DNA from: Actinomycetota bacterium
GTDB taxonomy: Bacteria; Actinomycetota; Thermoleophilia; Gaiellales; Gaiellaceae
Assembly (NCBI GenBank): GCA_046727975.1
Contig: JBKPDR010000004.1
Span: 47,819 to 111,818 of the forward strand
Length of the DNA stretch: 64,000 nucleotides
Direction: 5' to 3'
Both the position numbers and the translations under genes were made by a program. Shown one piece after another: positions 1-15,269 of the stretch. Within the stretch, counting starts at the first letter, position 1. Each line of letters starts with the position of its first letter. The notes beneath the pieces were generated by a model that did no database searches, had not been told where the DNA came from, and saw only the letters and a program-made list of their open reading frames with translations.

Positions 1-5
1 AGTGT

Positions 6-719
6 TCATGCCGTCCTTTCCAGTTGCGTGTCCTCGTGGATGCCGCACTCGAGCTTGTCCGAGCCCGCCCAGCGCCCCGCACGCTCCTCCTCGTCGGGTC
101 GCGTGGGCCGGGTGCAGGGAATGCAGCCGATCGAACGGTACCCGGCCTCGTGCAGCGGGTTGAAGGGGATGTCGTTGACCTGGACGTAGGCCCAGACGCG
201 CTTCTCGTCCCAGTCTGCGAGCGGGTGGATCTTGAACACCCCGTAGCGCTCGGACCACTCGATCTTCGGCGTCTCCGCGCGGCTCGGCGACTGGTCGCGG
301 CGAATGCCGGAGATCCAGGCATCGTATGGCTCGAGCGCGCGGACGAGCGGCTCGACCTTGCGGATGTGGCAGCAGCGGTCCGGATCGCGCTCCCACAGGT
401 TGGGACCCTCGGCTCGATGCTGCTCCGCGACTGTCGGTATCTCGGGCTGGATCAGCTTGAGCGTGTACTTCTCGACGAGCCGGTCACGAGTCTCGTAGGA
501 CTCTCGGAAGAAGAGATGCGTGTCGAGCTCGACGGTGTCCATCCGCAGCCCGAGCTCCGCGACCATGTGCACGAGTACGGACGACTGCTTTTGCCACGAG
601 CAGGTCAGGCAGAGACGCGGCCAGAAGAAGCTGTGGGCCCAGGAGATCAGCTCCTCGGCCCTCATGGCTTCGAAATCCAGGTCAGGAAGCCGGGGCTGGC
701 TCGACAGTGGCAGAGCCAA
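6..719 (-). CDS. cysH: Adenylylsulfate (APS)/PAPS reductase, Fe-S type
   Basis: ORF track 6..719 (237 aa). Motifs DRCCHIRK and GCIPCT (cluster cysteines of APS-type reductases) plus C-terminal ECGIH. Start is TTG at 719 with GAAGGAGG about 6 nt upstream. Overlaps the comA 3' end by 38 nt. An ATG at 9..7 overlaps the cysH stop (ATGA), so the operon probably continues off-window. Confidence 0.9.
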   Translation of the reverse strand: MALPLSSQPRLPDLDFEAMRAEELISWAHSFFWPRLCLTCSWQKQSSVLVHMVAELGLRMDTVELDTHLFFRESYETRDRLVEKYTLKLIQPEIPTVAEQHRAEGPNLWERDPDRCCHIRKVEPLVRALEPYDAWISGIRRDQSPSRAETPKIEWSERYGVFKIHPLADWDEKRVWAYVQVNDIPFNPLHEAGYRSIGCIPCTRPTRPDEEERAGRWAGSDKLECGIHEDTQLERTA

Positions 720-1485
720 GGAGCACCTCCTTCAGCGTGTCGCCGCGGAGCCCGAGCCTGAGCGTCTCGAGCGCGATGACCTCGTCGGGTGGGATGTTCC
801 CGAGGTTGACCTCCGGGCCGAAGTGCTTCACGAACCAGGCCTGGGAGTCCTTGGTCGGCGCCTCCCAGATCAGGTCGTGGAAGCTGAGCGAGTGCTCGAT
901 CTCGTCGACGAGGCCCGTCCGAAGCTCACCGGTCGGGCGATAGATGCCCGCGGTGCCCCCTTCGCGCCCCTCCGCGATCACCTTCCAGGCGCCTGCCTCG
1001 AGCTCCTCGCGCATCCACTGCACCCACAGATAGGGGGCGATGTTGACGTCCGCGTCCTTCGAGCCGACCTCGGAGAGCACGACGAAGTCCTGCGCGAACT
1101 CCGCGATCAGCTCCAGCTTCCGGTCGCGCGGGATCTCGAGAGTCCCGTCCGAGATCTCGACGTGCGAGAAGCGGAAGTGCTCGAGCCACCGCTTGAAGTC
1201 CTCGACCTTGTCCTGCCCGTAGACGGCCTCGAAGAGGGTTCCGCCACACACGACGGGCGTCCCGAACGAGCGGTAGAGCGCGATCTTCTTCTCCAGGTTG
1301 TTCGTGACGTAGCTCGTGCCCCAGCCGAGCTTCACGATGTCGACGTACTCGCCGGCGGTATCGAAGAGACCTTCGATCTCGCGCAGGTTGAGGCCCTTGT
1401 CGATGACATGGGTCAGCCCGCGCGAGCGCGGCTTCCCCTCACGCGTCGGAATGTCGAGGAACGAGCTCACCTCAGAGTCGTGCAT
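682..1485 (-). CDS. comA: (2R)-phospho-3-sulfolactate synthase (ComA/YitD family)
   Basis: ORF 682..1485 (267 aa), ATG at 1485. Full-length resemblance to the phosphosulfolactate synthase family (DIVKLGWGTS, VEISDGT, SEVGSKD blocks). Overlaps the upstream hydro-lyase beta gene by 14 nt. Confidence 0.88.
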   Translation of the reverse strand: MHDSEVSSFLDIPTREGKPRSRGLTHVIDKGLNLREIEGLFDTAGEYVDIVKLGWGTSYVTNNLEKKIALYRSFGTPVVCGGTLFEAVYGQDKVEDFKRWLEHFRFSHVEISDGTLEIPRDRKLELIAEFAQDFVVLSEVGSKDADVNIAPYLWVQWMREELEAGAWKVIAEGREGGTAGIYRPTGELRTGLVDEIEHSLSFHDLIWEAPTKDSQAWFVKHFGPEVNLGNIPPDEVIALETLRLGLRGDTLKEVLLGSATVEPAPAS

Positions 1486-2059
1486 AGATGTCCTCCAGCT
1501 TCTTGCGCGCGCGCTCCTGCACGTCGCGATAGAGCGAGTTCCCGTGAGCGTCGATGCCGACGGTGAGTGGGCCGAAGTCCTTCACGCGGAACTTCCAGAG
1601 GCACTCGGGCATGAGCTCCTCCCAGGCGACCTCCTCGATCTCTTCGATCTGGGTCGTCTCGAGAGCAGCGGCGCCGCCGACGATCGCGAAGTAGACCATT
1701 CCGAGCCGCTGCATCGGTTGGATCGCCTCGTCCGGGAAGCCTCCTTTGCCACAGATCGCGCGGACGCCGTACGTCTCGCCGAGACCCTCGGTGAAGCGCA
1801 CCATGCGGGCGCTCGTGGTCGTCCCGATGCAGACCTTCTCGTACCGGCCGGGGCCGAGCTTGCGAACGCCGGGCGCCGTGTGCAGAAGAAACGCCCCGCT
1901 GAGATCCATGGGCGGCTCCACGCCCTGGTCGAAGATGCGGATCTGGGTCCGGTCGCGGATCCCGATGATGTGGCCCTGGACGACGACCTCGTCACCCGCG
2001 TGCAGCTTCAGGATCTCGGCGGGGTCCGTGATCGGGAAGGTGACCTCGTGCGTGGCCAT
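1472..2059 (-). CDS. Fe-S hydro-lyase beta subunit (class I fumarase C-terminal / tartrate dehydratase beta type)
   Basis: Internal ATG at 2059 of ORF 1472..2515 (MATHEVTFPI...). The upstream 152 codons of the ORF are Arg/Gly-rich GC artefact. CGKGG and VGGAAAL blocks are typical of the family. TAATG junction with the alpha subunit stop. Confidence 0.85.
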   Translation of the reverse strand: MATHEVTFPITDPAEILKLHAGDEVVVQGHIIGIRDRTQIRIFDQGVEPPMDLSGAFLLHTAPGVRKLGPGRYEKVCIGTTTSARMVRFTEGLGETYGVRAICGKGGFPDEAIQPMQRLGMVYFAIVGGAAALETTQIEEIEEVAWEELMPECLWKFRVKDFGPLTVGIDAHGNSLYRDVQERARKKLEDIYARL

Positions 2060-2955
2060 TACGCGTCCCTCTCGTATGAGATCGAACCGTCCGCCGCGAC
2101 GTGCGCCGAGGCGCGCCGTGCCGCCCAGCACTGGTAGTTGACCGCAACCGGGTTGAGGGTCATGTGCGTGTCCGCGTGCTCGACGTGGACCGAGAGGACG
2201 GTGACGTCGCCGCCCAAGCCCATCGGTCCCACCCCCGTCTCGTTCAACAGCGCAAACAGGTCCTCCTCGAGCTTCGCGACCTCCGGATCGGAGTTGCGCG
2301 TGCCGACGGGCCTCGCAATCGCCTCCTTCGCGAGGTGCATGGCGTAGTCGGCGGAACCACCGATCCCGACGCCGACGATCCCCGGCGGGCACGGCTTCCC
2401 GCCCGCGCCGACTATCGACTCGAGGACGAACTGCTTGATGCCGCGGACACCGTCGGCCGGGACGCACATCTTGAGGAAGCTCATGTTCTCGGAGCCCGAG
2501 CCCTTGGGAACGCACTTCACGTCGAGGCCGTCCCAGTCGGGCACGAACTCCCAGTGCACGATGGGTACGCGGAACCCGACGTTCTGACCCGTGTTCTCGC
2601 GGGTCAGCGTGTGCACGGTGTTCGAGCGCAGCGGATGCTCGACCGTCGCGCGCTCCGTGCCGGCCTTGAGCGCCTCGTAGATGCGCGCCGGATGCAGCGG
2701 GAAGCCCTCGCCGACCCGGCAGTAGTAGACGGCGATGCCCGTGTCCTGGCAGACGAGGTTCTGCTCATCCTCCGCAACGTTCACGTTCCGGAGGATCGTC
2801 TGCAGAACTCTCTGGCCCGTGACCGAGGTCTCGGTCGTCGCCGCGTTCGCCAGCGCGTCCCTCAGGTCTTTGGGGATGTCCATGAGCGCCCAGACGTACA
2901 GGTGGGCTGCGGCGTCCTCGACAGCCTGCCGGAGATCCGTCGCAAGAACGCTCAA
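2059..2955 (-). CDS. Fe-S hydro-lyase alpha subunit (class I fumarase N-terminal / tartrate dehydratase alpha type)
   Basis: ORF 2059..2955 (298 aa). Blocks VCQDTGIAV, KGSGSEN and PCPPGIVGVGIGG match the 4Fe-4S hydro-lyase catalytic subunit. 4-nt overlap with the ankyrin gene. Confidence 0.85.
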   Translation of the reverse strand: MSVLATDLRQAVEDAAAHLYVWALMDIPKDLRDALANAATTETSVTGQRVLQTILRNVNVAEDEQNLVCQDTGIAVYYCRVGEGFPLHPARIYEALKAGTERATVEHPLRSNTVHTLTRENTGQNVGFRVPIVHWEFVPDWDGLDVKCVPKGSGSENMSFLKMCVPADGVRGIKQFVLESIVGAGGKPCPPGIVGVGIGGSADYAMHLAKEAIARPVGTRNSDPEVAKLEEDLFALLNETGVGPMGLGGDVTVLSVHVEHADTHMTLNPVAVNYQCWAARRASAHVAADGSISYERDA

Positions 2956-3359
2956 CCTGCGACCTCCGTCGCCTCGAGCAGCTCGAGCACCGCTCGTGCG
3001 TCATCGCCTCCCGCACGCGCGTGCTCCACGAGCGGGATGCCGTGCGGCCCTTTCGCGTCGTGCATCTCCGGAAAGTCCGAGAGCACGGCGCTGACGATGT
3101 CGAAGTAGCCCAGCATCGCGGCCGCGAAGAGGTCGAGTCGCGCTCCGTGCTCGAGCAGGAGCAGGGCAATCTGACGCCGCCCCATGTGTGACGCCGCCCC
3201 GAGGGCGGTCTCCCAGTCGCCGCCGCCCCAGTCCCAGGCGGCGTTCACGAGTGCAGGCTCCTCCCCGAGCAGCTCGCGGACGGCCTCGAGGTCGCCGTGG
3301 GCGTTGGCTACGAACGCTTGAACCTTCTCGGGATCGAGTCGTGCCGGCGTGTCGCTCAT
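2952..3359 (-). CDS. Ankyrin-repeat protein (135 aa)
   Basis: Internal ATG at 3359 (MSDTPARLDPEKV...) of ORF 2952..3851. Repeated ...G.TALGAASHMGRRQIALLLLEHGA.../...AAMLGYFDIVSAVL... helix-turn-helix ankyrin pattern. ATGA overlaps on both sides. Confidence 0.72.
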   Translation of the reverse strand: MSDTPARLDPEKVQAFVANAHGDLEAVRELLGEEPALVNAAWDWGGGDWETALGAASHMGRRQIALLLLEHGARLDLFAAAMLGYFDIVSAVLSDFPEMHDAKGPHGIPLVEHARAGGDDARAVLELLEATEVAG

Positions 3360-4570
3360 GCTGCGCTCCTCTCTGCCGCAGCCTTGCCCGCTCGTCGTCC
3401 GAACACCGTGCACTCCAGGAGTGAGTTCCCCATCATCCGGTTCCGGCCGTGCGTACCGCCGGCGATCTCGCCGCAAGCGAACACGCCCTCGAGCGTCGTT
3501 TCCGCGTGCTCGTCGATGACGAGCCCGCCGTTCTGGTAGTGGAGCACCGGATAGGTGTAGATCTTCTCCTGGAGCGGGTCGATTCCCCCATTTCGGTACC
3601 GGCGAAGCATGTACGGGAGCGAGATCTGCGCATCCGCGACGGGAATCCTCGTTGTGTCGAGCCAGACCGCGGGACGTCCGCCCGGAGTGCGCACTCCCTT
3701 GCCCTTCTCGACCTCGTCGAAAATCGCCTGGGACACCGCGTCGCGCGGACCCAGGGAGTCCGTGAACTCGTCGCCGTCCACGTTCAGGAGGACGGCTCCG
3801 TACGCGCGCGTCGTCTCGGGGATCGAGTAGCCCTGCATCGTGTCGGGCCACGCGCCTCCATTCGGGTGGTACTGGAGCGCGTCGAGATCGCGCGCCTCGG
3901 CGCCCGCCTCGAGCGCGATGCGCGTGGTCTCACCGGTCGCGTTCGGGTGATTCGTCGACAGCTCGCCTCGCGCTTTCGCCTCTCGATAGCAGCGACCGCC
4001 GGCCGCAAGCACCACGGTGCCCGCGGCAATGTCCACGAGACCCAGCTTCGTCTCGAAGGTCGCGGTCCAGCCATGCTCGACCGGCTCGAGCACAGCCAGT
4101 GCGTGATGCGGCAGCACCGTCCCGGTACCGCCTTCGAACGCCTCGCGGAGCGACTTCGTGATCGCGTGGCCCGTGCGATCGCCCACTTGCAGAAGCCGCT
4201 TGCGGCTCGCTCCGCCACAGCGCGCGAGGCGATAGCCCCCGTTCGAGCGCGTGAACTCGACGCCGAGCGCTTCGAGCCAATGGATCGCCGACGGCGCCTC
4301 GCCCGTCAGCGTCTCGACGAGGCGCGGGTTCGCCGTGCCGTGCGAGCTTCGCATGACGTCTTGGGCGTGCACCTCGGGGGAGTCGTCGTCGCCGAATGCG
4401 GCCTGGATGCCGCCCTGGGCCTTGGCGGAGTTGCAGGCCTGAAGGGTGGTCTTCGTGGCGAGACCCACCCGGGCTCCCGCTCGCTCGGCGGAAACCGCGG
4501 CCGCAAGGCCGGCGGCACCGCTACCGACCACGAGCACGTCGAAGGAGGCCTCGGTTGGCACGACCCGCAT
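3356..4570 (-). CDS. FAD-dependent oxidoreductase, fumarate reductase/succinate dehydrogenase/L-aspartate oxidase flavoprotein-like (short form)
   Basis: ORF 3356..4603. Rossmann motif DVLVVGSGAAGLAAA, HYxxGG-type block (LHYQNGGL) and C-terminal ACGE..GG.HG.NR.G.NSL. The start is ambiguous: ATG at 4570, ATG at 4597 or TTG at 4603. Confidence 0.8.
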   Translation of the reverse strand: MRVVPTEASFDVLVVGSGAAGLAAAVSAERAGARVGLATKTTLQACNSAKAQGGIQAAFGDDDSPEVHAQDVMRSSHGTANPRLVETLTGEAPSAIHWLEALGVEFTRSNGGYRLARCGGASRKRLLQVGDRTGHAITKSLREAFEGGTGTVLPHHALAVLEPVEHGWTATFETKLGLVDIAAGTVVLAAGGRCYREAKARGELSTNHPNATGETTRIALEAGAEARDLDALQYHPNGGAWPDTMQGYSIPETTRAYGAVLLNVDGDEFTDSLGPRDAVSQAIFDEVEKGKGVRTPGGRPAVWLDTTRIPVADAQISLPYMLRRYRNGGIDPLQEKIYTYPVLHYQNGGLVIDEHAETTLEGVFACGEIAGGTHGRNRMMGNSLLECTVFGRRAGKAAAERSAA

Positions 4571-4668
4571 CCTAGCGCACTTTCTTATCCGCGTCATTAT
4601 CAATGTTTATTCGATGCTTCACCGCTTCGCCACATGCGCCCGCCCCCGGAAGCGGCTAGACTCGCCAA

Positions 4669-5076
4669 ATGACCACCCTCGCGGACATCGTCAAGCCCAA
4701 CTTCCTGACCGTCGCCCCCGAGGACACGCTCGGCGAGGTCGCCGAGCGGATGACCCGCGAGAACGTCGGCGCCGTGATCGTCAAGGACTACGGGCGCCTG
4801 ATCGGGATCTTGACCGAGCGCGACATGCTGCACGCGATGGCGGCCCGGGTGCATACGAGCGACGCCCGTGTCCGACAGTGGATGACCGCGGATCCGATCA
4901 CCGTGTCCGTGGACACGGAGCTCGACGACGCCGCGAAGATCATGCTCGACAACGGGTTCCGCCACCTGCCGGTGGTCGACGGCGAGACCGTCCGCGGCGT
5001 GGTCAGCCTGCGGCGGGTTCTCGGCGGCCGCCGCCGACCGGCGCCCGAGCCGGCTCCTGCTCCCGAAGCCGCGTAG
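4669..5076 (+). CDS. CBS-pair domain protein
   Basis: ORF 4669..5076 (135 aa). Two CBS repeats (...VGAVIV.D.GRLIGILTERD... and ...FRHLPVVDGETVRGVVSLRRV...). Confidence 0.85.
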   Translation: MTTLADIVKPNFLTVAPEDTLGEVAERMTRENVGAVIVKDYGRLIGILTERDMLHAMAARVHTSDARVRQWMTADPITVSVDTELDDAAKIMLDNGFRHLPVVDGETVRGVVSLRRVLGGRRRPAPEPAPAPEAA

Positions 5077-5082
5077 CGCCGC

Positions 5083-5535
5083 TCAGCTGCAGGCGGAGGC
5101 GATTCCGCGCACGAGCGTGGCCGCGGCGGTCGTCAAGCTCACGTGGACCCGTCGCAGCTGGCGAACGAGCTTCGCGTTCTTCCGAATCTCGACGAGTGCC
5201 TCGCGCTCGGTGTCGTCACGCTGAGTCCTCGCGAAGAGGCACGAGAGCGCGCTCTTCTTGCCGCCGATCCAGCCAACGGTGTACAGGTACTTGAGCACCG
5301 GCTTCTTGTACGGCGCCTGCCTGTAGACCGCGCGGGCCTCTCCGGGCGGGACCTTCTGGGCGCGCGCACCCGCGCTGACGGCGGTCAAGGCCGTGCCGTT
5401 CGACGTCGGAAGCGCCGCGAGCCTCTGGCCGAACGAGCCGCTTATGGTCGATACGAGCACCCCAATCGCCGCCACCACGCTCGCGTATTCGACGATCACC
5501 GACCCATCGTCCGCTTCCACGAGAGGGCCCGTCAA
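5083..5535 (-). CDS. Flp/Fap-type pilin-like protein with long C-terminal extension
   Basis: ORF 5083..5580. Contains the Flp prepilin signature G/xxxxEY (DDG-SVIV-EY) followed by a hydrophobic helix ASVVAAIGVLVSTI. I prefer the TTG at 5535, which avoids a 41-nt overlap with the upstream gene. The GTG at 5580 is the alternative. Confidence 0.45.
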   Translation of the reverse strand: MTGPLVEADDGSVIVEYASVVAAIGVLVSTISGSFGQRLAALPTSNGTALTAVSAGARAQKVPPGEARAVYRQAPYKKPVLKYLYTVGWIGGKKSALSCLFARTQRDDTEREALVEIRKNAKLVRQLRRVHVSLTTAAATLVRGIASACS

Positions 5536-5539
5536 GCCC

Positions 5540-6499
5540 CTACCAGACGGAACGGAGGAGCTCTCCGATGTCTCGAGCACTCGCCGGGCGGGGATTCGCC
5601 CGCGCGCCGGGCCGCACCGCGACGGCCTCCGCGAGCTCGGCCAGCTCGTCCTCGGGGACGCCGAAGTCGCGCAACCGTTCGAATCCCCCGAGACGCGCGA
5701 GATCGGCGACTCGCGAGGCAGGATCGTCGGTGCCGAGCGCTCCTCCGAGCTGTTCGATCGCGCCTGGAACCGCGGGCTCGTTGAAGCGGAGCGCGGGCGG
5801 GAGGCAGATAGCGTTCATCGCCCCGTGCGGCAAGCCGTAGCGGCCGCCGAGCGCCTGCGCCATCGCATGCGCGAGGTAGAGACCTTGCTCAGACACGGCC
5901 CGGCCGGCGTGCATAGCTCCCCGGAGCAGCGCGGTGCGCGCCGCGAAGTCCGTTCCGTCCTCGACGACGCGCGGCAGCCAGCGGCAGATCAGCCGCGCAC
6001 CTTCGACTGCGTCTGCGGAATCTCCCGGGTACAACGCCTCGGCGCAGTGGGCGAGCGCGTTCAGCGCCGTTCCGACGGTCTCCGCGCGCGGAAGGTCGAG
6101 CGTGAGGGAGGGCTCGTACACGATCGCCTCGGTTCTCGCTCCGGAGCCGCCGGCCTTCACACGCCGCTTCTCGTCTCGAGAGCCGAAGTACGAGGTCCAC
6201 TCCGCCCCGGCGTAGGTCGTCGGAACAGCGACGAGTCGCAAGCCGGTTGCGGCGGAAGCCGCCTTCGCGGTGTCGATCGCGCTCCCGCCGCCGAGGCCGA
6301 CGAGCCCGTCGGCGACTCGCGCCGCAGCCACCGCCGCGGAGACCACGTCGAGCGGGGCATGGCGTCGGACGCCGGTGAAGCGCGAGCCGACCGGCAGGTC
6401 GAGAGCCGCAAACCTCTTGCTCGTCACGAGTAGCGGCTGTTCGCTCCCGAGCTCTCTCAGCACCGGCTCCAGCTCGGCGAGGCCCCAGCGAACGATCAC
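5540..6499 (-). CDS. Iron-containing alcohol dehydrogenase family (maleylacetate reductase-like)
   Basis: ORF 5540..6499 (319 aa). GLGGGSAIDTAK glycine-rich motif and the AHxxxxxxGxPHG metal-binding region. 4-nt overlap with the lysR-type gene upstream. Confidence 0.8.
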   Translation of the reverse strand: MIVRWGLAELEPVLRELGSEQPLLVTSKRFAALDLPVGSRFTGVRRHAPLDVVSAAVAAARVADGLVGLGGGSAIDTAKAASAATGLRLVAVPTTYAGAEWTSYFGSRDEKRRVKAGGSGARTEAIVYEPSLTLDLPRAETVGTALNALAHCAEALYPGDSADAVEGARLICRWLPRVVEDGTDFAARTALLRGAMHAGRAVSEQGLYLAHAMAQALGGRYGLPHGAMNAICLPPALRFNEPAVPGAIEQLGGALGTDDPASRVADLARLGGFERLRDFGVPEDELAELAEAVAVRPGARANPRPASARDIGELLRSVW

Positions 6500-7392
6500 G
6501 CGGCGAGCCGTGCGTGCGCGAAGCCCACGAAGGCGTCGGCGACACGTGTGCGTGGACGTCCGACCGCGCTGGCGAGAGAGATCACGCGCGACGCCTCGAG
6601 CCCGTGCACACGCGCCTCCGCAAGGCGCCCGGCCTCGAGATCGGCCTCGACTGCGTTCCGGGAGATGAACGTCACGCCGTACCCGGCCTCGACCGCTCTC
6701 CGCACGGACTCCTGCAGCCCGAGCTCGAGCCGCACATCGAGGTCGCGCAGGCGAACGCCGCGCTTGCGGAGCGCGTCCTCGACGATCTGGCGCACTCCCG
6801 CCCCCTCCTGCATCAGGATGAGCGTCTCGTCACGCAGTTCGTCGAGCGACACCGTTCGATCGGCGAAGCGGTGCCCGGCCGGACAGACGAGGATCACCTG
6901 GTCCGCGAAGAACGGCTCGAAGCGGACGCCGCGCTGCCGGCGGGCGGCTCCGACGATCCCGAGCTCGAGCTCTCTCGCACCGACGGCCTCGACGACGCTC
7001 TGGGTATCGGACACGGTCAGGACCACGTGAACCCCCGGGTTCTCGCGTTGAAACTCACAGAGGAGAAGTGGCACCACGATCGCCGCCGGCCCCGTCGAGG
7101 CGCCGATCTGAAGCTGTCCCTGCAACGCGCCCTCAGCGCTCGAGGCGACGTCCGACACGATCTGCTCCTCGAGCGAGAGCAGCTTCTGCGACCCGCGGTA
7201 CAGCCGCCAGCCTGCTTCGGTCGGCTCGACTCGCCTGCCGGAGCGATCGAGCAGCTGGGTTCCGAGCCGCTTCTCGAGCGCGCGTATCTGGAGCGAAACG
7301 GCGGGTTGCGTGACACCGAGCCGCTCGGCAGCCTGCGAGAAGCTCCTCCGCTCGACGACGGCGCAGAAGGCGGCAAGCTGGCGAGTGTCCAT
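6496..7392 (-). CDS. LysR-family transcriptional regulator
   Basis: Internal ATG at 7392 (MDTRQLAAFCAVVERRSFSQAAERLGVTQPAVSLQIRALE...) of ORF 6496..7605. Classic LysR wHTH N-terminus and substrate-binding domain. Confidence 0.9.
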   Translation of the reverse strand: MDTRQLAAFCAVVERRSFSQAAERLGVTQPAVSLQIRALEKRLGTQLLDRSGRRVEPTEAGWRLYRGSQKLLSLEEQIVSDVASSAEGALQGQLQIGASTGPAAIVVPLLLCEFQRENPGVHVVLTVSDTQSVVEAVGARELELGIVGAARRQRGVRFEPFFADQVILVCPAGHRFADRTVSLDELRDETLILMQEGAGVRQIVEDALRKRGVRLRDLDVRLELGLQESVRRAVEAGYGVTFISRNAVEADLEAGRLAEARVHGLEASRVISLASAVGRPRTRVADAFVGFAHARLAA

Positions 7393-7407
7393 ATAAGCAG
7401 AGCTTAT
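7393..7407. promoter_or_regulatory. LysR-type T-N11-A palindrome (ATAAGC-AGA-GCTTAT)
   Basis: Perfect inverted repeat directly abutting the lysR start, in the 39-nt divergent region with the DUF354 gene. Fits the T-N11-A LysR box. Confidence 0.5.
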
Positions 7408-7431
7408 CGCTGAGACGCTAGGGTCAGGCCG

Positions 7432-8469
7432 ATGCGGGTCTGGATCGACGTCTCCAACTCGCCACAGGTGCTCTTCCTCCGGCCGCTCATCGGCCTGCTC
7501 CTGCAGCGCGGCCACAGCGTCGAGGTGACGACGCGCGACTACGCGCAGACCGTCCAGCTCCTCGACCTGCACGGCATCCCCTATCAGGTCGTTGGTCCGC
7601 CCCACGGCGGAGCGCGCGCGTTGGGGAAGGGCCGCGCCATGGCCGGCCGCCTACGGGCGCTGCGGACCTTCGCAAGAGGACGCGCGTTCGACGTCGCGCT
7701 CTCACACGCGTCGCACGAGCTGCCTGTGGTCGCCCGGTCGCTCGGGGTCCCCTCGGCGTATGCCTTCGACTACGAGTTCGCGCGCGTCCAACACGGGCTC
7801 GGCTGCCGGGCGGCGCGGCGCGTCGTCGTCCCGGACACGATCCCGCAGGAGCGCCTCGACCGGCTCGGCGCCCGCGTCGCAAAGGTGCAGCGCTACCCGG
7901 GATTGAAGGAGGAGTACTACCTCTCGGGATTTCGGCCCGAGGAACGCGTGCTCGCGGAGCTCGGCCTCGACCGCGAGCGGGTGCTCGCCGTCGTGCGGAC
8001 GCCGCCGGACGTCTCGCTGTACCATCGCCACGGCAACCCGCTCTTCGCGGACCTTCTCCGGAGGCTCGGGACCGATCCGAAGGTGCAGGCCGTCGTTCTC
8101 CCGCGAACGACGGAGCAGCGGGAGGCGGTGCACGCGCTGGCACTGCCCGCGCTGGTCGTCCCAGAGCACGCGGTCGACGCCCAGAGCCTGATCGCTTTCT
8201 CGGATCTCGTCGTCTCGGCCGGCGGGACGATGAATCGCGAGGCAGTGGCGCTCGGTGTGCCCGTGTACACGACCTTTGCGGCCCGGGTCGGCGCCGTGGA
8301 CGAGGCGCTGATCGGTCAAGGTCGGCTCAAGCCGCTCGCCGCCGTGGACGATCTCGCGCTCGCCAAAAGGCCGGCGGATGCGCCGCCGCCCATGCGCGAT
8401 CCCGCATTGCTCCTCGACCTCCTGCTCTCGGCCCTCGACACGTCGCACGAAGCGTCTCTGTCTGGTTAA
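7432..8469 (+). CDS. DUF354-family protein (glycosyltransferase-like fold)
   Basis: ORF 7432..8469 (345 aa). N-terminus MRVWIDVSNSPQVLFLRPLI and C-terminal SAGGTMNREAA.LGVP resemble DUF354 / GT-B-like proteins. Confidence 0.65.
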   Translation: MRVWIDVSNSPQVLFLRPLIGLLLQRGHSVEVTTRDYAQTVQLLDLHGIPYQVVGPPHGGARALGKGRAMAGRLRALRTFARGRAFDVALSHASHELPVVARSLGVPSAYAFDYEFARVQHGLGCRAARRVVVPDTIPQERLDRLGARVAKVQRYPGLKEEYYLSGFRPEERVLAELGLDRERVLAVVRTPPDVSLYHRHGNPLFADLLRRLGTDPKVQAVVLPRTTEQREAVHALALPALVVPEHAVDAQSLIAFSDLVVSAGGTMNREAVALGVPVYTTFAARVGAVDEALIGQGRLKPLAAVDDLALAKRPADAPPPMRDPALLLDLLLSALDTSHEASLSG

Positions 8470-8499
8470 GGTCCTTCGGTCAGACAAGGGAGGGGAGAA

Positions 8500-10275
8500 A
8501 TGAGACGACTTCGGCTTGCCGTGCCGACGGTGATCGTCGTGCTCGCCCTCTTCAGTGCGGTCGCAGCGGCCGGCGACAACGACTCCGGCTTCAAGACGTC
8601 ACGACCGTCGATGATCAACGTGCTCGCGCCGGCGAAGCCGACGGTGCCGATCATTACGACCGGCGAGACGATGCCTGCGGGATATCGCTTCGAGTCGATT
8701 CCGGACGGGATCGCCTTTCGTGCGCGGGGCCAGGGACGACTGGACGTCTTCGTGAACCACGAGACGTCGACGGTTCCGTTCCCGTTCAACGCACCCTTCG
8801 GCGGGTCGCCGCCAACCGAGGCGAATCAAAACGACTTCGACAACTCGCAGGTCAGCCAGCTGATCCTGAACCAGCACAGTGCGGGCGTCCTCTCCGCGAA
8901 GTACGCGATCGCAAGCGGGTCGAACTACCAGCGCTTCTGCTCGAGCTACATGGGAACGGAGCAGGAAGGTTTCGACCGGCCCGTCTACTTCGCGAACGAG
9001 GAGGCGCAGGATTGGGTCTTCCGCAGCGGAACCGCGTTCCGCGGGCCCGGCTTGACGCCGGCGGGCACCGCCGGCGCTGAGCAGACTGGCGTCACCGCCG
9101 CGTACGACGCTCAGACTGGCAAGTTCAAGACGATCTACGGCATGGGGCGGTTCAACCACGAGAACACGGTTCCCATACCGGTCGCCGACGATCTCTTCGT
9201 GCTCTCGACGGACGACACGTTCTTCACCACGCAGCTGGCCGAGCCGTACAAGCCGGCGTGGTCGCAGCTGTACAGCTACATCGCGCCCGACGCTGACGCG
9301 CTGATGAACGACGAGGGCGACCTCTGGGCGTTCGTCTCCGACACCGAGGGCTACGACGATTACTTCGACTTCACTCCCGGCGATACGACGGAGATCGAGG
9401 GACACTTCATCAAAGTGCCCAAGGCCATCGCCACCGGAAAGAATCCCGCGACCGGGGCCGATTGGCTCTCCACGAGCTTCCCGGGGATGCTGCCGCCGCC
9501 GGCGGTCTCGGGGGCTCCTCCGGATGGTCCGCAGTGGGTCCTCGACCAGTGGGGCAACGCAGAGAACAACGAGCAGGGCGAGAACGTGTTCCGCTTCGTC
9601 CGGCTCGAGGACGTTGCCTACGACAAGCGCCCGGGCATGTCGAACATCGTGTACATGGCGGACACGGGGCGGGCAACGGCAGGAGCCGCCCCCACCCCCG
9701 AACGCTCGACGAACGGCCGGATCTGGAAGCTCATCTTCGACCCGGACAACCCGACCGAGAATGCGAAGCTCTCGATCCTCGTCGAGGGTGACGACAACGA
9801 AGTCGCGGCAACCGATCCGGTTACCGCGTTCAACGAGATCCACCAGCCCGACAACCTCGACACGACGGCGAACGGCAGCCTGCTGGTCACGGAGGATCCG
9901 AGCAGCAACAACCAGTACGCATTCCCGAGAGACGCGAACGAGACGCCCGCTCGGCTCTGGCGCATCGACCTGAATGCAGCGAGCCCGGACGCGTCCAAGG
10001 TGACCGCTGCGGAGGTCGACCAGTCGCTCGACGAGCTCGACGGCTACGACGTCGACGCGGCCGGTCGCGCGAACATGGGGAACTGGGAGTCGAGCGGCGT
10101 CATCGACGCCTCCCCGGTCTTTGGACCCGGCGCGTTCCTCATCACGATCCAGGCGCACTCCCTCTGGATCGAGAAGGCCGACGGGCCCGATGCGCTCCCA
10201 CCCCCGGGGAAGGACTACACCTTCAAGCGGGAGGGCGGCCAGCTCGCACTCATCTACCTGAACCCGAGCTGGTAG
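8500..10275 (+). CDS. Secreted DUF839/PhoX-like beta-propeller protein (putative phosphatase)
   Basis: ORF 8500..10275 (591 aa). Signal peptide MRRLRLAVPTVIVVLALFSAVAAAG. Blocks FANEE, GRFNHEN and PDNLDTTANGSLLVTEDP resemble PhoX-family propellers. GGGAGGGGAG RBS upstream. Confidence 0.55.
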   Translation: MRRLRLAVPTVIVVLALFSAVAAAGDNDSGFKTSRPSMINVLAPAKPTVPIITTGETMPAGYRFESIPDGIAFRARGQGRLDVFVNHETSTVPFPFNAPFGGSPPTEANQNDFDNSQVSQLILNQHSAGVLSAKYAIASGSNYQRFCSSYMGTEQEGFDRPVYFANEEAQDWVFRSGTAFRGPGLTPAGTAGAEQTGVTAAYDAQTGKFKTIYGMGRFNHENTVPIPVADDLFVLSTDDTFFTTQLAEPYKPAWSQLYSYIAPDADALMNDEGDLWAFVSDTEGYDDYFDFTPGDTTEIEGHFIKVPKAIATGKNPATGADWLSTSFPGMLPPPAVSGAPPDGPQWVLDQWGNAENNEQGENVFRFVRLEDVAYDKRPGMSNIVYMADTGRATAGAAPTPERSTNGRIWKLIFDPDNPTENAKLSILVEGDDNEVAATDPVTAFNEIHQPDNLDTTANGSLLVTEDPSSNNQYAFPRDANETPARLWRIDLNAASPDASKVTAAEVDQSLDELDGYDVDAAGRANMGNWESSGVIDASPVFGPGAFLITIQAHSLWIEKADGPDALPPPGKDYTFKREGGQLALIYLNPSW

Positions 10276-11478: not shown

Positions 11479-11549
11479 CTTAGAGCACCTCACGCAATGA
11501 GCGGCCATGTCGCCACGCGACGGGCGATCATTCTGTGAGGCGCTCTTAG
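11479..11549. terminator. Long inverted repeat spanning the two convergent stop codons
   Basis: cttagagcacctcac ... gtgaggcgctcttag: 13 of 15 positions pair, with a 41-nt loop. Lies between the M50 protease (+) and capD-like (-) 3' ends. Confidence 0.3.
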
Positions 11550-13453
11550 CCGGACGCCGGGGCCGTCTTCGCGGCGCCCGCGCCGTCGCCGGCCGCGAGC
11601 TCGACGCGGCGCGGCGCGGCGACGATGGCGTTCAACCGGCCGACGAGCTCCAGCGTCTCCCCTCCCACGACGAGCCGCTCGAGGAGGTCCAGCTCGCCGT
11701 CGAGCCACTCCGCTTCGATCGGTGGGCGGGTCACGAGCAGAATCGCCTCGTAGCGCGAGGGGGTTACCGTCTCGTCGCGCGACCAGAGCTCCTCGTGCAG
11801 CTTCTCTCCCCGCCGCGCGCCCACGATCTCGATCTCGATGTCCCGGCCCGGTTCCTTCCCGGAAAGCCGGATCATCGTGTCCGCGAGATCGACGATGCGG
11901 ACAGGGTCGCCCATGTCGAGCACGTAGATCTGGCCCTGTCCCCCGATGGCGCCGGCCTGGATGACGAGCTGGACCGCCTCTGGGATCGTCATGAAGAAGC
12001 GCGTCATTTCCCTGTGTGTGACGGTCACCGGGCCGCCGCGCGCGATCTGCTTGCGGAAGGTGGGGATGACGCTCCCCGACGAGCCGAGCACGTTTCCGAA
12101 GCGCACCGCACAGAAGCGTGTCGGCGTATCGTCCCGATGTCCCCAGGCTTCCACGAGCCATTCGCACAACGCCTTCGATTGACCCATGACGTTCTTCGAG
12201 TTCACTGCCTTGTCGGTGGACACGAGGACGAACCGCTTCGCCTCGAACTCCACCGCGACGTCGGCGACGGTGCGGGTGACGAGGGTGTTGTTGCGGACCG
12301 CTTCGATCGGGTTCGCCTCCACCAGGGGAACGTGCTTGTACGCGGCGGCGTGGAACACGACCCCCGGCCGGTACTTCTCGAACACCTGGCGCATCTTGGT
12401 CGCGTTGCCGGCGTCGGCGAGGATTGCCGCTGTCGCGCGGAAGTCGCGCTCGTCGACGAGCTCGCGCTCGATCTCGAACAGCCCGCGCTCGCCGTTGTCC
12501 ACGAGCACGAGCCGTGTCGGTGCGACACGTGCGATCTGTCTGCAGAGCTCCGCGCCGATGGAGCCTCCTGCCCCGGTCACGAGCACGACCTCGCCCGTCA
12601 GGTACTCCGCAATCGACTCGAGGTCCACCTCGACCGGCTCGCGGCCGAGCAAGTCTTCCACCTCGACCGGCCGGATCTGACCGGTGAAGTTCGAGTCCGT
12701 GGAGATCATCTCGGCCAGGCCGGGAAGCGTCTTCACGGGAACCCGCTCGGTGCGCGCGATCGCGACGATGCGCTCGCGCTGCTCGCCCGAGGCGGAGGGG
12801 ATCGCGATGAGGAGCTCGTCCGGCCGTCGCTCGCGGAGCAGGTAGCGGAGATCGCCGGTCGTCCCGAGAACTCGGACTCCGTGCAGGCGGACGTTCTTCT
12901 TCCGCGGATCGTCGTCGACGAGGCCGATCGGCGTGTAGCCGAGAGCCGGCGTGCGCAGCATCTCGCGGAGGATCTGCTCGCCGGCGTCTCCGGCGCCGAC
13001 GATGATGACCTCCTTGCCGCGGGCGACGATCGTCCCTGCGGCCGGCCGCTCGAGCAGCGTCCGGACGAGCAGCCGCGATCCCGTCACGAGGCCGAGGAGG
13101 AGCAGCAGATCGACGATCCAGATCCCACGCGGCACACGCGCGGGGTGGAAGTCGAGCAGCGTGAAGACGAGAAAGGCGGCGATCACGGCCGCCGAGACGC
13201 CGCGGGCCGCGCCCCACATGTCCCGCGTCGACACGTATCGCCACCAGCGGTTGTAGAAGCCGAAGGCGACGAAGACGGGAATCGTGATCCCGACGACGAG
13301 CACGACGACGTCCCACTCGAGGTACCGCCGGTAGTACACCGGCGGCTCGAAGTCGTCGAAGCGCAGGTACCACGAGAGGAGCCAAGCCGCCGCGACGAGC
13401 GCGGCGTCGACCGCGACCTGCCACAGCCTGTGCCTATTGACGGGGCTCCTCAT
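11546..13453 (-). CDS. Membrane-anchored NDP-sugar 4,6-dehydratase (CapD/WbpM/PglF family)
   Basis: ORF 11546..13453 (635 aa). Four N-terminal TM helices, then VLVTGAGGSIG Rossmann and the YxxxK SDR core. Confidence 0.9.
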   Translation of the reverse strand: MRSPVNRHRLWQVAVDAALVAAAWLLSWYLRFDDFEPPVYYRRYLEWDVVVLVVGITIPVFVAFGFYNRWWRYVSTRDMWGAARGVSAAVIAAFLVFTLLDFHPARVPRGIWIVDLLLLLGLVTGSRLLVRTLLERPAAGTIVARGKEVIIVGAGDAGEQILREMLRTPALGYTPIGLVDDDPRKKNVRLHGVRVLGTTGDLRYLLRERRPDELLIAIPSASGEQRERIVAIARTERVPVKTLPGLAEMISTDSNFTGQIRPVEVEDLLGREPVEVDLESIAEYLTGEVVLVTGAGGSIGAELCRQIARVAPTRLVLVDNGERGLFEIERELVDERDFRATAAILADAGNATKMRQVFEKYRPGVVFHAAAYKHVPLVEANPIEAVRNNTLVTRTVADVAVEFEAKRFVLVSTDKAVNSKNVMGQSKALCEWLVEAWGHRDDTPTRFCAVRFGNVLGSSGSVIPTFRKQIARGGPVTVTHREMTRFFMTIPEAVQLVIQAGAIGGQGQIYVLDMGDPVRIVDLADTMIRLSGKEPGRDIEIEIVGARRGEKLHEELWSRDETVTPSRYEAILLVTRPPIEAEWLDGELDLLERLVVGGETLELVGRLNAIVAAPRRVELAAGDGAGAAKTAPASG

Positions 13454-14538
13454 GCCCGGACTCCAGCAGTCGCAAGGACCGTTTGGACGACCCGCTGCTG
13501 CTGCTCGGCCGTGATCCCCGCCCAGAGCGGGATCGAGAAGTTCTCCCGCGCCGCGCGCTCGGTCTCGGGCAGGTCCCCTTCCTCGTATCCGAGATAGCGG
13601 AGCGCCGGCTGCAGGTGCAGGGGCGGCTGGTAGTAGTGGGCGTTCCCGATCTGCGCATCCGTGAGCGCGGCTTGGATCTCGTCGCGCTGCGGCGAGCGGG
13701 AGACGAAGACGTGGTACACGTGGCCGGGCTCGTCCTCGGGGAGCTCACACGCCTGGCCGAGCCCGAGTCGGCGATACCGCCCGGCGGCCTCGCGGCGCTG
13801 CGCGGTCCACGAGTCGAGCTCGCGGAGGAAGATGCGGAGAACGGCGGCTTGAATCTCGTCGAGCCTGGAGTTCGTGCCGATGTAGTCGAACGTGCGCTTC
13901 TCCTTCGAGCCGTGGAAGCGCAGCATCCGAATGCGCTCGGCGAGCTCCTCGTCGTTCACGGCGACGAGACCTCCGTCCCCGAGCGCGAACAGGTTCTTGG
14001 TCGGGTAGAAGCTGAACGTCGACGCGATGCCGACCTTGGCGATGTCCGGCGATCCGAACGACTGTGCCGCGTCCTCGATCAGCGGAAGCCCGAACGCGGC
14101 GAGCTCGGCGAGCGGCGCCGGCCTTCCGAAGAGATGCACCGGCATGATCGCCTTCGTACGCGACGTGATGCGCTCGGCGACGCGCTCCGGATCCAGGTTG
14201 AACGTCTGCGGGTCGATGTCCGCGAACACGGGAGTGGCCCCCACGCGAGCGATCGCCTCGGCCGTCGCGTAGAAGGTGAATGCGGGACAGATGACCTCGT
14301 CTCCCGCACCGATCTCGAGGGCGTTCAAGACGAGCACGATCGCGTCAGTGCCGTTCCCGACGCTCACTGTCTCGCGGACGGCGAGGAAGCCCGCCGCCTC
14401 CTGCTCGAATGCGGCGACGTTGGGCCCGAACACGAACTGCCCGCTCTCGAGCACGTCGTCGACCGCCCGTCTGATGTCGGGAAGCAGAGGCGCGTACTGC
14501 GCCTTCACGTCGATGAGCGGAATCGGCCGCGGAGTCAC
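13450..14538 (-). CDS. DegT/DnrJ/EryC1/StrS-family sugar aminotransferase
   Basis: In frame with ORF 13450..14757. Homology starts at IPLIDVKAQY. The only plausible start is GTG at 14538, because upstream codons overlap dedA. PLP-lysine region FSFYPTKNL. ATGA-type overlap with the capD-like gene. Confidence 0.88.
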   Translation of the reverse strand: MTPRPIPLIDVKAQYAPLLPDIRRAVDDVLESGQFVFGPNVAAFEQEAAGFLAVRETVSVGNGTDAIVLVLNALEIGAGDEVICPAFTFYATAEAIARVGATPVFADIDPQTFNLDPERVAERITSRTKAIMPVHLFGRPAPLAELAAFGLPLIEDAAQSFGSPDIAKVGIASTFSFYPTKNLFALGDGGLVAVNDEELAERIRMLRFHGSKEKRTFDYIGTNSRLDEIQAAVLRIFLRELDSWTAQRREAAGRYRRLGLGQACELPEDEPGHVYHVFVSRSPQRDEIQAALTDAQIGNAHYYQPPLHLQPALRYLGYEEGDLPETERAARENFSIPLWAGITAEQQQRVVQTVLATAGVRA

Positions 14539-14582
14539 GGGGACATCCGAGTGTAACCGTGAAGAGTCAGACCTCAGGCCGT

Positions 14583-15269
14583 TCAGCGTGAGGACGATTC
14601 CTCGGCCGCACGCCGGCTGCGAAGCCGCCTGAAAACGAGCCATGCGACGGCCACGACGACCGCGCCGACGACGGCGTAGTCGAAATAGCTGAAGGCGTCG
14701 TGGATGTCCTCCCAGTTCGCACCGGCCGCCCAGCCTCCAGCCGCAAAGGCGAAGCACCAGATCGCCGATCCCGCGAGCGTCAAGAGCGTGTAGCGGAGGA
14801 GCGGCGTCTCCATGACGCCGGCGGGGATGGAGACGAACGAGCGAACGACGGGCGTCAGGCGCCCGAGGAACACCGCCCAGTCCTCCCAGCGCTCGAACCA
14901 GCGCTCCGCCCGGTCGAGCTTCTCCCGATCGAGATGCAGCCAGCGCCCGCGGCGTTCAAGGTACGGGCGGCCGCCGTAGAGCCCGATGGCCCAGCCTGCG
15001 ATCGAGCCGAGCGTGTAGCCGAGCGTGCCGGCGAGAGCGACCGCGACGTAGGCGGGGAGCCCGGCGTCGGGCTCCCAGCCGAGGAGCACGACGTCCTGCT
15101 CGGCGAAGGCGCCGGAGGCGACGGCGCCCGCGTACACCATCACGACTTCGCTCGCGGCCGGGAGGACCGCGTCGACGAGCATGAGCAGGAAGACCGCGTA
15201 CAGCCCGTAGTCTCCGATCGCGGACGTGACCGCCTCGGTGACCTCGCTGACGATCGAGGCGACGAGCAT
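14583..15269 (-). CDS. dedA: DedA-family membrane protein
   Basis: ORF 14583..15269 (228 aa). Conserved DedA blocks (GRPYLERRG..., FLGRLTPVVRSFVSIPAG). Confidence 0.88.
   Translation of the reverse strand: MLVASIVSEVTEAVTSAIGDYGLYAVFLLMLVDAVLPAASEVVMVYAGAVASGAFAEQDVVLLGWEPDAGLPAYVAVALAGTLGYTLGSIAGWAIGLYGGRPYLERRGRWLHLDREKLDRAERWFERWEDWAVFLGRLTPVVRSFVSIPAGVMETPLLRYTLLTLAGSAIWCFAFAAGGWAAGANWEDIHDAFSYFDYAVVGAVVVAVAWLVFRRLRSRRAAEESSSR

Follow-up and report, generated by a model that had tools for sequence, protein, structure and literature searches.

A ComA-linked operon of a Gaiellaceae bacterium that may direct the synthesis of 3-sulfopropionate from sulfate and phosphoenolpyruvate

We have analyzed a 64-kb stretch of DNA (hereafter, the window; G+C of ~68%) from a soil actinobacterium of the Gaiellaceae, the first 4.6 kb of which is filled with six minus-strand open reading frames (ORFs; third-position GC of 0.83-0.92) for a flavoprotein, an ankyrin-repeat protein, the two subunits of an Fe–S hydro-lyase, a phosphosulfolactate synthase (ComA), and a CysH-type reductase. 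With moderate confidence, and on the basis of sequence comparisons, we propose that these genes are part of a dedicated sulfonate-biosynthesis operon, in which sulfate and phosphoenolpyruvate (PEP) would be converted via sulfolactate and sulfoacrylate to 3-sulfopropionate (3-SP). The broader claim, namely that sulfonates derived from ComA are the compounds on which these enzymes act, can be made with considerably greater assurance. The six genes are as follows.

3356..4570, minus strand: flavoprotein (404 aa) resembling fumarate reductase (FRD) and NadB, the proposed sulfoacrylate reductase and first gene of the operon (FAD_binding_2, E = 4e-65)
2952..3359, minus strand: ankyrin-repeat protein (135 aa), weakly matched (Ank, 24.3 bits with a cut-off of 21.1; Ank_2, 26.4 bits with a cut-off of 27.3)
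2059..2955, minus strand: alpha subunit of the Fe–S hydro-lyase, class I fumarase type (298 aa, TTG start; Fumerase, E = 3.8e-92)
1472..2059, minus strand: beta subunit of the Fe–S hydro-lyase, diverged (195 aa; Fumerase_C, E = 1.7e-26)
682..1485, minus strand: ComA, phosphosulfolactate synthase (267 aa; PF02679, E = 1.9e-87)
6..719, minus strand: CysH, thioredoxin-dependent reductase of Fe–S type for adenosine 5'-phosphosulfate (APS) or its 3'-phosphorylated form (PAPS) (237 aa; PAPS_reduct, E = 2.9e-46)

The window proteins were annotated with Pfam and NCBIfam profiles, and the profile searches recommended in a preliminary description of this DNA confirmed the family of each of the six proteins, weakly in the case of the ankyrin protein. 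Also as stated there, the genes are co-directional and overlap by 4, 4, 1, 14, and 38 nt. When read directly from the sequence, the flavoprotein and ankyrin genes overlap by 4 nt in ATGA, the ankyrin and alpha genes by 4 nt in TTGA, the alpha and beta genes by 1 nt in TAATG, and the beta gene and comA by 14 nt; the overlap of 38 nt between comA and cysH takes the TTG at 719 as the cysH start, which is supported because tblastn matches in relatives start ~35 nt ahead of the comA stop. Ribosome-binding sites of the GGAGG type precede the ankyrin, alpha, and comA starts, and a scan of window positions 1-9000 for the intrinsic terminator consensus and for Rfam families including riboswitches gave neither a terminator-like site nor a family match. 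The unit is, nonetheless, larger than the six genes first described: in a near-identical contig with the same ComA (L001, GCA_046729655.1), cysH is followed by the genes for APS kinase (cysC), ATP sulfurylase (sat), and a TauE-family permease (tauE), and the APS kinase start is located 128 nt past the cysH stop.

ComA in the window is full length (residues 14-249 align with positions 2-243 of the 243 in PF02679). It scores 246.1 bits with TIGR03849, below the cut-off of 280 of this archaeal model, and matches YitD of Bacillus subtilis (1u83) with 209 bits and ComA of Methanocaldococcus jannaschii (1qwg) with 160 bits; the blocks EISDG, SEVGSK, and EGRE align with both of these solved ComA structures. 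Given its family membership, the protein is predicted to be a bacterial-type phosphosulfolactate synthase using sulfite and PEP. The translation of cysH contains DRCCHIRK, GCIPC, and ECGIH (i.e., the CC, CxxC, and ECGxH motifs) and scores 247.1 bits with NF002537, above the cut-off of 154, and 209.7 bits with TIGR02055 (APS_reductase), below the cut-off of 235.3.

The best 80 genomic relatives of ComA were all from metagenome-assembled genomes of Gaiellaceae/Thermoleophilia, with 82-92% identity; this ComA-based scan stays within Gaiellaceae and thus provides within-family statistics that are not informative on distant conservation. Co-occurrence was counted at the 68 loci having at least 4 kb upstream of comA, and the genes for the flavoprotein and for both hydro-lyase subunits were found together in 56 and all missing in 12, with a partial set in none. 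These three genes are therefore considered as one module, which is sited exactly between the LysR/Fe-ADH genes (described below) and comA, and the linkage of comA to the hydro-lyase pair and flavoprotein, for which a neighborhood test had been proposed, is kept in 56/68 Gaiellaceae loci. A divergent gene for a CBS-pair protein accompanies the module in 49/56 loci and is found in 0/12 loci without the module, while the Fe-ADH gene is located upstream of comA in 40/56 module-positive and 12/12 module-negative loci. The 12 module-negative loci have the order of LysR-FeADH-comA-cysH'-cysC-cysD-cysN-tauE. The ankyrin gene is indeed in place within the operon, as had been noted, but is an optional insert present in just 18/56 module-positive loci, and the flavoprotein and alpha genes are separated by ~50 nt where it is missing; we therefore rejected the ankyrin protein as a component of the pathway. 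As a separate observation, a second type of cluster with the same gene order and without the flavoprotein and hydro-lyase genes occurs in Gaiellaceae (L058, L067, L069, L070, and L073-L081; e.g., L069 7304-14988), and its cysH product is only ~40% identical in most cases.

The flavoprotein has FAD_binding_2 as its only Pfam match and no C-terminal domain, and it falls under every NCBIfam cut-off: 252.4 bits versus 452.75 for nadB (TIGR00551), 234 versus 718 for TfrA, and 220 versus 567 for SdhA/FrdA. The TIGR00551 match stops at position 389 of the 489 in the model, and the protein itself ends at residue 404. While an initial homologue search with this protein gave near-identical Gaiellaceae proteins only, an exhaustive search of representatives clustered at 50% identity retrieved relatives of ~400 residues with 35-55% identity. 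Residues were mapped by alignment with FrdA and NadB of Escherichia coli and are given in FrdA numbering unless otherwise stated. His232, Arg287, His355, and Arg390, the catalytic and substrate-binding residues of E. coli FrdA, are kept in the window protein as well as throughout the ComA-linked members. His44, to which flavin adenine dinucleotide (FAD) is covalently attached, is replaced with Asn in the window protein and with Asn or Lys across the clade, and Glu49 is replaced with Gln, as in SdhA and NadB. At the position of NadB Glu121 (E. coli numbering), which binds the amino group of the substrate, the window protein and its Thermoleophilia relatives have Cys, members in glycan-type clusters (see below) have Ala, and most of the ~500-aa NadB-like representatives have Glu. 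Furthermore, Thr244 in the TE motif of the capping domain, a contact to the distal carboxylate, has given way to Pro in each of the 57 Gaiellaceae copies and, without exception, in the ComA-linked members; FrdA, NadB, and 74 proteins of a sister group (T-type) have Thr or Ser here. In a neighbor-joining tree of 97 sequences, the Pro244 proteins (P-type) form one group with 19 representatives. From these sequence features, the flavoprotein is neither NadB nor an ordinary FrdA but belongs to a distinct clade of short proteins with Pro244. An archaeal protein nested in the P-type group (P0152; L083 9001-10248) carries Thr244->Ser, Glu245->Thr, and Arg248->Ile, has no ComA nearby, and has probably been re-purposed.

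Outside Gaiellaceae, ComA is found next to the P-type clade in 12/12 informative contexts, from which two contigs (L094 and L108) were left out as too short for judging. The linkage of comA and the flavoprotein gene, together with the 57 Gaiellaceae copies, is thus conserved in relatives as the preliminary description would have it. In 9 of the 12 contexts (L084, L085, L087, L089, L095, L096, L174, L175, and L176, from marine, gut, soil, and other metagenomes), a gene for an argininosuccinate-lyase-like protein (Lyase_1/ASL_C2, ~500 aa) is added, mostly between the flavoprotein gene and comA; in most contexts, this lyase of the aspartase/fumarase superfamily (AFS) fills the slot held by the hydro-lyase in the window. 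The nine AFS lyases are 40-55% identical to one another and 29-43% identical to XcbC or its Methylocystis homologue. Among 72,556 plasmid records, their top matches include XcbC of the Xanthobacter plasmid pXAUT01 (Xaut_5068, encoded directly after ComA), the lyase in an xcb-like cluster of Methylocystis, and lyases on plasmids of alkene-oxidizing Nocardioides and Mycolicibacterium. XcbC eliminates phosphate from phosphosulfolactate to give sulfoacrylate (PMC9457059).

The loci with the lyase are embedded in clusters of capsule/O-antigen type containing Wza/Wzx/Wzy or Wzm/Wzt, glycosyltransferases, DegT aminotransferases, and NeuB, and a carboxylate-activating ligase adjoins the cassette in seven of the glycan-type clusters: ATP-grasp in L085, L094, L096, and L175 (and, by weak matches, in L084 and L087) and AMP-binding in L174. 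By phmmer and hmmsearch, neither an ATP-grasp nor another ligase was detected in the window, L001, L082, L088, or L112, and, as the evidence stands, the idea of ligation to a glycan thus cannot be carried over to Gaiellaceae. Two of these loci deserve mention in their own right. In a TARA marine contig (L174 4254-9218), the order is lyase-ComA-AMP-binding ligase-flavoprotein, and the cluster also contains NeuB and a CMP-sugar synthetase, suggesting that a nonulosonic acid bears a sulfonated acyl group. In L087 (2835-4304, minus strand), a 489-aa fusion of ComA and ComB (PF02679 + PF04029) is encoded in a Wzm/Wzt glycan cluster next to DegT, a P-type flavoprotein, an AFS lyase, and two sulfotransferases; judged from its domains, this fusion shows that sulfolactate can be the substrate of the lyase in at least one lineage.

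The order of LysR-flavoprotein-ComA is seen in L082 (Miltoncostaea marina), L088, and L112; in M. marina, it is followed by ATP sulfurylase, and the flavoprotein and ComA genes overlap by 4 nt. Directly after this cassette, L082 (12231-14240) and L088 (11155-13095) encode a conserved protein of ~650 aa, the two copies of which are 48% identical, have a signal-like segment at the N-terminus, and contain a region weakly resembling GH42. With just sat, flavoprotein, and ComA, the Miltoncostaea set gives some appeal to the idea that the flavoprotein is an AprA-like APS reductase; we rejected this possibility, as the best families of the flavoprotein are NadB, TfrA, and Sdh and as CysH co-occurs in Gaiellaceae and L089.

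These counts (P-type with ComA in 12/12, XcbC-like lyase in 9/12, and the Gaiellaceae block complete, missing, or partial in 56/12/0) support the proposal of the preliminary description that the hydro-lyase and flavoprotein would act on a ComA-derived C3 sulfonate, by analogy of sulfolactate, sulfoacrylate, and 3-SP with malate, fumarate, and succinate. In the operon as we envisage it, sulfate would be taken up, possibly via the TauE-family permease, activated by the ATP sulfurylase and APS kinase encoded beyond the window, and reduced to sulfite by the Fe–S-type CysH. ComA, as expected from its family, would then add sulfite to PEP to form (2R)-phosphosulfolactate, from which a phosphatase that was not found at the locus would release (R)-sulfolactate, the steric equivalent of L-malate. 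The hydro-lyase (hlAB) would dehydrate (R)-sulfolactate to sulfoacrylate, and the flavoprotein with non-covalent FAD would reduce sulfoacrylate to 3-SP, the sulfonate analogue of succinate. While the pathway outlined in the preliminary description is thus supported, its step from phosphosulfolactate to a hydro-lyase substrate lacks a phosphatase. A 591-aa protein with an N-terminal signal-like segment and a weak match to PhoX (alkaline phosphatase) is encoded at window positions 8500-10275 (plus strand); if located outside the cytoplasm, this protein is not a likely source of the phosphatase activity that is missing for phosphosulfolactate. In the other bacteria, the same flavoprotein and ComA would be combined with an XcbC-like lyase producing sulfoacrylate by elimination of phosphate, and the neighboring ligase, of ATP-grasp or adenylate-forming type, would probably activate the resulting acid for its attachment to a surface glycan. 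In Gaiellaceae, the product could remain as the free acid, leave the cell by export, or end up on a glycan.

Several properties of the enzymes are consistent with these steps. According to the Cahn–Ingold–Prelog rules, (2R)-sulfolactate and (S)-malate correspond to each other in the spatial arrangement of their groups; by chemical reasoning, therefore, ComA yields a product of the appropriate stereochemistry for a fumarase-type enzyme. The alpha subunit aligns with the M. jannaschii protein 7xky_A (260 bits) at the CQDTG, KPCPP, and QCWA motifs, its cluster ligands Cys69, Cys189, and Cys276 are invariant in Gaiellaceae and in the groups linked to T-type flavoproteins, and 76 invariant positions are common with the T-type-linked fumarases. 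The beta subunit is more deviant: it scores 148.7 bits with NF004708, below the cut-off of 269, and passes only the domain-level model TIGR00723 (149.1 versus 145.15 bits). Between Gaiellaceae and T-type-linked fumarases, group-specific substitutions number 36 in beta and 19, mostly conservative, in alpha, and several of those in beta adjoin ligand motifs (GPTTS -> GTTTS and YTARD -> IGIRD). In the structure of the Leishmania class I fumarase, the C-terminal (beta) domain reportedly binds the carboxylate distal to the cluster; the divergence in beta fits a sulfonate at the distal-acid position, which is suggestive but not decisive. As for the flavoprotein, FrdA mutants at His44 with non-covalent FAD favor reduction over oxidation, and the lack of the corresponding His would therefore favor the reductive direction. 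No gene for an SdhB- or FrdB-like protein was seen among the Pfam-annotated ORFs of window positions 1-22 kb, and the nearest precedent for such a partner-less reductase, by analogy, would be soluble reductases of the yeast Osm1 type. The TauE-family permease could be a CysZ-like importer of sulfate (PMC5840216) or an exporter of 3-SP (PMC11489063).

The sister T-type group provides a control for these assignments. The same metagenome scan retrieved 74 T-type proteins of ~525-560 aa with Thr244 and an N-terminal extension of 90 residues (in L097-L173; e.g., L136 7725-9335, with fumarase alpha/beta at 9453-10900); their best NCBIfam match is TfrA, below the cut-off. Within the fetched DNA, ComA was found in 0/74 T-type loci, while ~15 of the loci, many of them from human gut metagenomes, carry class I fumarase alpha and/or beta, mostly directly after the flavoprotein gene and 35-44% identical to the window hydro-lyase. 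One T-type protein (P0377) is in a reductive tricarboxylic acid cycle context. A T-type flavoprotein and fumarase probably constitute a soluble malate-to-succinate module, and a hydro-lyase followed by a reductase is therefore a natural two-step arrangement (malate -> fumarate -> succinate). By analogy, the Gaiellaceae module would copy this arrangement but with a ComA-specific flavoprotein.

Several points weigh against the proposed pathway to 3-SP. The alpha subunit scores 316.1 bits with NF004885, an equivalog model of fumarate hydratase, exceeding the cut-off of 276. The beta residues Arg35, Asp36, Thr81, Thr82, Arg85, Lys105, and Gly106 in the RD, TTSARM, and GKGG motifs are conserved; all the direct substrate ligands are unchanged, so that malate as a substrate is compatible with the sequence. 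No electron donor for the flavoprotein is evident, the Miltoncostaea-type clusters have the flavoprotein and ComA without any lyase, and the synteny inside one family is partly due to shared ancestry. With the ComB domain of L087 as a query, tblastn found no ComB (PF04029) in the 64-kb window or the 80 Gaiellaceae loci. To our knowledge, assays of P-type enzymes have not been published, and no report of 3-SP biosynthesis was found in the open-access literature.

Some of these points would be expected if the hydro-lyase and flavoprotein were ordinary enzymes of C4-dicarboxylates, namely fumarase and a soluble fumarate reductase or an aspartate-oxidase-like protein, which merely lie beside genes for sulfate assimilation and ComA. 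The fumarate hydratase score of alpha, the complete set of cluster cysteines and RD, TTSARM, and GKGG ligands, and the ~15 metagenome loci in which T-type flavoproteins adjoin class I fumarases without ComA all speak for such an explanation. It is, however, the P-type and not the T-type clade to which the window protein belongs, and this clade adjoins ComA in 12/12 independent contexts, 9 of which have a lyase of the sulfoacrylate-forming type instead of fumarase. There is a 14-nt overlap of the beta gene with comA, the block has been gained or lost as a whole exactly at the comA locus, and the flavoprotein has neither NadB Glu121, FrdA Thr244, the C-terminal domain, nor an Fe–S partner. The exclusive association of the Pro244 clade with ComA and the swap with an XcbC-like lyase are therefore not explained by ordinary C4 enzymes, and we consider this alternative unlikely.

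Alternatively, the flavoprotein might be an oxidase or dehydrogenase that converts, for example, (R)-sulfolactate to sulfopyruvate in place of ComC, giving products of the sulfopyruvate, cysteate, or taurine type. Such a role would suit the Miltoncostaea-type clusters with no lyase, the appearance of L-aspartate oxidase among the closest curated models, Gln at position 49 as in SdhA and NadB, and the frequent occurrence of DegT aminotransferases as neighbors. On the other hand, the Glu residue of NadB for binding the amino group is absent, FAD would be non-covalent, and the usual lyase partner yields an alpha,beta-unsaturated sulfonate, which is a substrate for a reductase but not for an oxidase. 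We know of no precedent for physiological oxidation of a 2-hydroxy acid in the FRD/NadB family, which also counts against this role, and we regard it as improbable, a shade more so than the C4 explanation.

The direction of the proposed pathway could also be reversed; a catabolic route of 3-SP -> sulfoacrylate -> sulfolactate has been proposed for homotaurine degradation in Roseovarius in a thesis, as cited in PMC11489063, and both types of enzymes fit either direction on paper. In the window, however, the genes are translationally coupled to a biosynthetic set that produces and consumes sulfite (sat, cysC, cysH, and comA), a sulfo-lyase of SuyAB type is not present, and the lack of the covalent-FAD histidine disfavors oxidation of the succinate type; the catabolic direction is thus very unlikely.

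Least probable of all, in our estimate, is a variant pathway for coenzyme M (CoM), in which sulfoacrylate from ComA would be thiolated to CoM. ComA with a plausible sulfoacrylate step does constitute the opening of the bacterial CoM route (PMC9457059), but homologues of XcbD and XcbA were not found by tblastn outside the xcb loci L090 and L091 (XcbE was not searched), no CoM-dependent enzyme was noticed nearby, and Pfam annotation of the gene-tabled loci and of window positions 1-22 kb revealed neither ComB, ComC, nor ComDE, which agrees with their reported absence in the preliminary description, as does the negative ComB search in the window and the Gaiellaceae loci. More specifically, tblastn gave no match to XcbC, XcbD, or XcbA in the window or any Gaiellaceae locus; for XcbD, the search covered all loci and 80 metagenome loci, and for XcbA it covered the same set without the 80 metagenome loci.

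We thus favor the synthesis of 3-SP from sulfate and PEP as the function of the operon. More tentatively, and in less than half of our expectation, the entire clade of ~400 residues may be sulfoacrylate reductases for de novo 3-SP synthesis, for which two unrelated lyases would have been recruited: the paralogue of class I Fe–S fumarase by Gaiellaceae and the XcbC-like AFS lyase by a range of bacteria including marine and Verrucomicrobia-like ones. The ligase-activated acyl group might then decorate amino sugars of capsule/O-antigen in many bacteria, and in the minimal Thermoleophilia form, the flavoprotein alone might perform both the elimination of phosphate and the subsequent reduction.

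It is useful to compare the operon with known systems. In Xanthobacter autotrophicus Py2, CoM is made by XcbB (ComA), XcbC, XcbD, and XcbE (PMC9457059), and the statement in the preliminary description that this route forms sulfoacrylate through elimination of phosphate by an AFS enzyme was correct. The start with ComA is shared, as would be sulfoacrylate; the window, however, has the class I Fe–S hydro-lyase in the slot of the AFS lyase and an additional flavoprotein, and the predicted fate of sulfoacrylate is reduction instead of addition of cysteine. For the spore sulfolactate of B. subtilis, paralogues for sulfate activation and reduction (yisZ-yitA-yitB) have been described together with yitCD (ComB/ComA; Graham et al. 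2002, cited in PMC517825). In both organisms, ComA is accompanied by its dedicated set of ATP sulfurylase, APS kinase, and CysH-type reductase, and YitD is the closest solved ComA, but B. subtilis has ComB, which the window lacks, has neither flavoprotein nor hydro-lyase, and makes sulfolactate itself as the product.

The hydro-lyase shares with class I fumarases (M. jannaschii 7xky; Archaeoglobus fulgidus 2isb) and TtdAB the fold, the three cluster cysteines, and the CQDTG, TTSARM, and GKGG motifs, and differs from class I fumarase in the low score of beta (148.7 versus 269 bits), the 36 clade-specific substitutions near ligand motifs, the translational coupling to comA, and the co-inheritance with a ComA-linked flavoprotein. 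The flavoprotein likewise shares the FAD_binding_2 fold and His232/Arg287/His355/Arg390 with FrdA, NadB, Fcc3 of Shewanella, yeast Osm1, and TfrA, and FAD would be non-covalent as in NadB, Fcc3, and Osm1; it differs from the soluble fumarate reductases and NadB in its length (~400 aa), the lack of the C-terminal domain and of an Fe–S or cytochrome partner, Pro244, and its genomic partner, which is ComA but not fumarase, nadA, or nadC. Finally, bacteria degrading sulfoquinovose and 2,3-dihydroxypropane-1-sulfonate (DHPS) metabolize 3-SP with HpfX, HpfYZ, and a TauE exporter, and an ATP-grasp-type enzyme can activate 3-SP (PMC11489063). The predicted 3-SP and the TauE-family permease are the points of likeness; the DHPS degraders are, however, catabolic, form 3-SP from DHPS via the aldehyde, and have no ComA, flavoprotein, or lyase. 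In sum, the placement of sulfate-activation genes beside ComA (B. subtilis, PMC517825) and the path from ComA to sulfoacrylate (Xanthobacter) are already known, while the flavoprotein clade, its coupling to ComA, and a class I fumarase paralogue in this role were not found described in the open-access literature; the enzyme combination had been suspected to be undescribed with ComA, and our literature search agrees.

The surroundings of the operon in the window contain the following features.

1..9, minus strand: start of a dispersed, palindrome-bearing repeat of 130 nt by which cysH and cysC are separated in this strain (L001 1878-2010)
4571..4668, no strand: divergent intergenic region of 98 bp between the operon and the CBS gene, AT-richer, presumed promoter/operator (read from sequence)
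4669..5076, plus strand: stand-alone CBS-pair protein (135 aa), divergent (two CBS domains, E = 7.7e-31)
5083..5580, minus strand: hypothetical protein (165 aa), conserved but evolving fast, encoded downstream of Fe-ADH (39-73% identity by tblastn in 43 loci)
5540..6499, minus strand: protein of the iron-containing alcohol dehydrogenase (Fe-ADH) family, maleylacetate-reductase type (319 aa; best PDB matches 3jzd, 3iv7, 3hl0, and 3w5s)
6496..7401, minus strand: LysR-type regulator overlapping the Fe-ADH start by 4 nt (HTH_1 + LysR_substrate)
7432..8469, plus strand: DUF354 (GT-B-like) protein (PF04007, E = 7e-42; in 59 loci)
11546..14757, minus strand: PglF-like sugar 4,6-dehydratase and DegT aminotransferase (Polysacc_synt_2, E = 1.4e-110; DegT, E = 4.5e-102)

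The intergenic region of 4571..4668 has no match to the sigma-70 consensus, and the protein of 5083..5580 has no Pfam match. An ATG at 9..7 had been taken as a sign that the operon continues off-window; the operon does leave the window, but not via that ATG, since the real next gene is the one for APS kinase. In L001, the ATG opens a 43-codon ORF inside the 130-nt repeat, and we therefore ruled it out as the start of the next gene. The repeat in L001 (1878-2010) carries a perfect palindrome, GGGGGAAAC-CATG-TTTCCCCC, and further intergenic copies are located at window positions 43475-43524 and 21920-21977 and in L013, L023, L039, L045, and L055; it looks like an element of Gaiellaceae resembling miniature inverted-repeat transposable elements (MITE) or repetitive extragenic palindromic (REP) sequences. 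In many relatives, cysC abuts the cysH stop without the repeat.

The nearby amino-sugar genes (DUF354, PglF-like dehydratase, and DegT) form a conserved set that may be tied to the operon. The trio of DegT-DUF354-Polysacc_synt_2 is also located upstream of LysR-flavoprotein-ComA in Miltoncostaea, and L001 has glycan genes (formyltransferase, PIG-L, and Wzy_C) downstream; the amino-sugar genes and the L001 glycan genes provide a hint of a glycan destination in Gaiellaceae. Elsewhere in the window (17338-21720, minus strand), two adjacent radical-SAM genes of CofH/MqnC type are found beside that for a polyprenyl synthetase and may function in the futalosine-type menaquinone pathway or a related cofactor pathway.

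Known biosynthetic uses of ComA are those for coenzyme M, by two routes, and for spore sulfolactate; a third branch, marked by a diagnostic enzyme of its own, is suggested by the operon and related clusters. If our proposal is true, a function would be given to a clade whose members are at present wrongly labeled "L-aspartate oxidase" or "succinate dehydrogenase flavoprotein" and which comprises at least 19 clusters at 50% identity in addition to thousands of soil Gaiellaceae sequences, and an Fe–S fumarase-type enzyme and an AFS lyase would represent a case of non-orthologous displacement at the same step. 3-SP has so far been reported only as a degradation intermediate (PMC11489063), in which capacity it feeds sulfite-respiring gut bacteria; the operon would then constitute a biological source of this compound, and an unreported sulfonated decoration of bacterial surface glycans would also be predicted.

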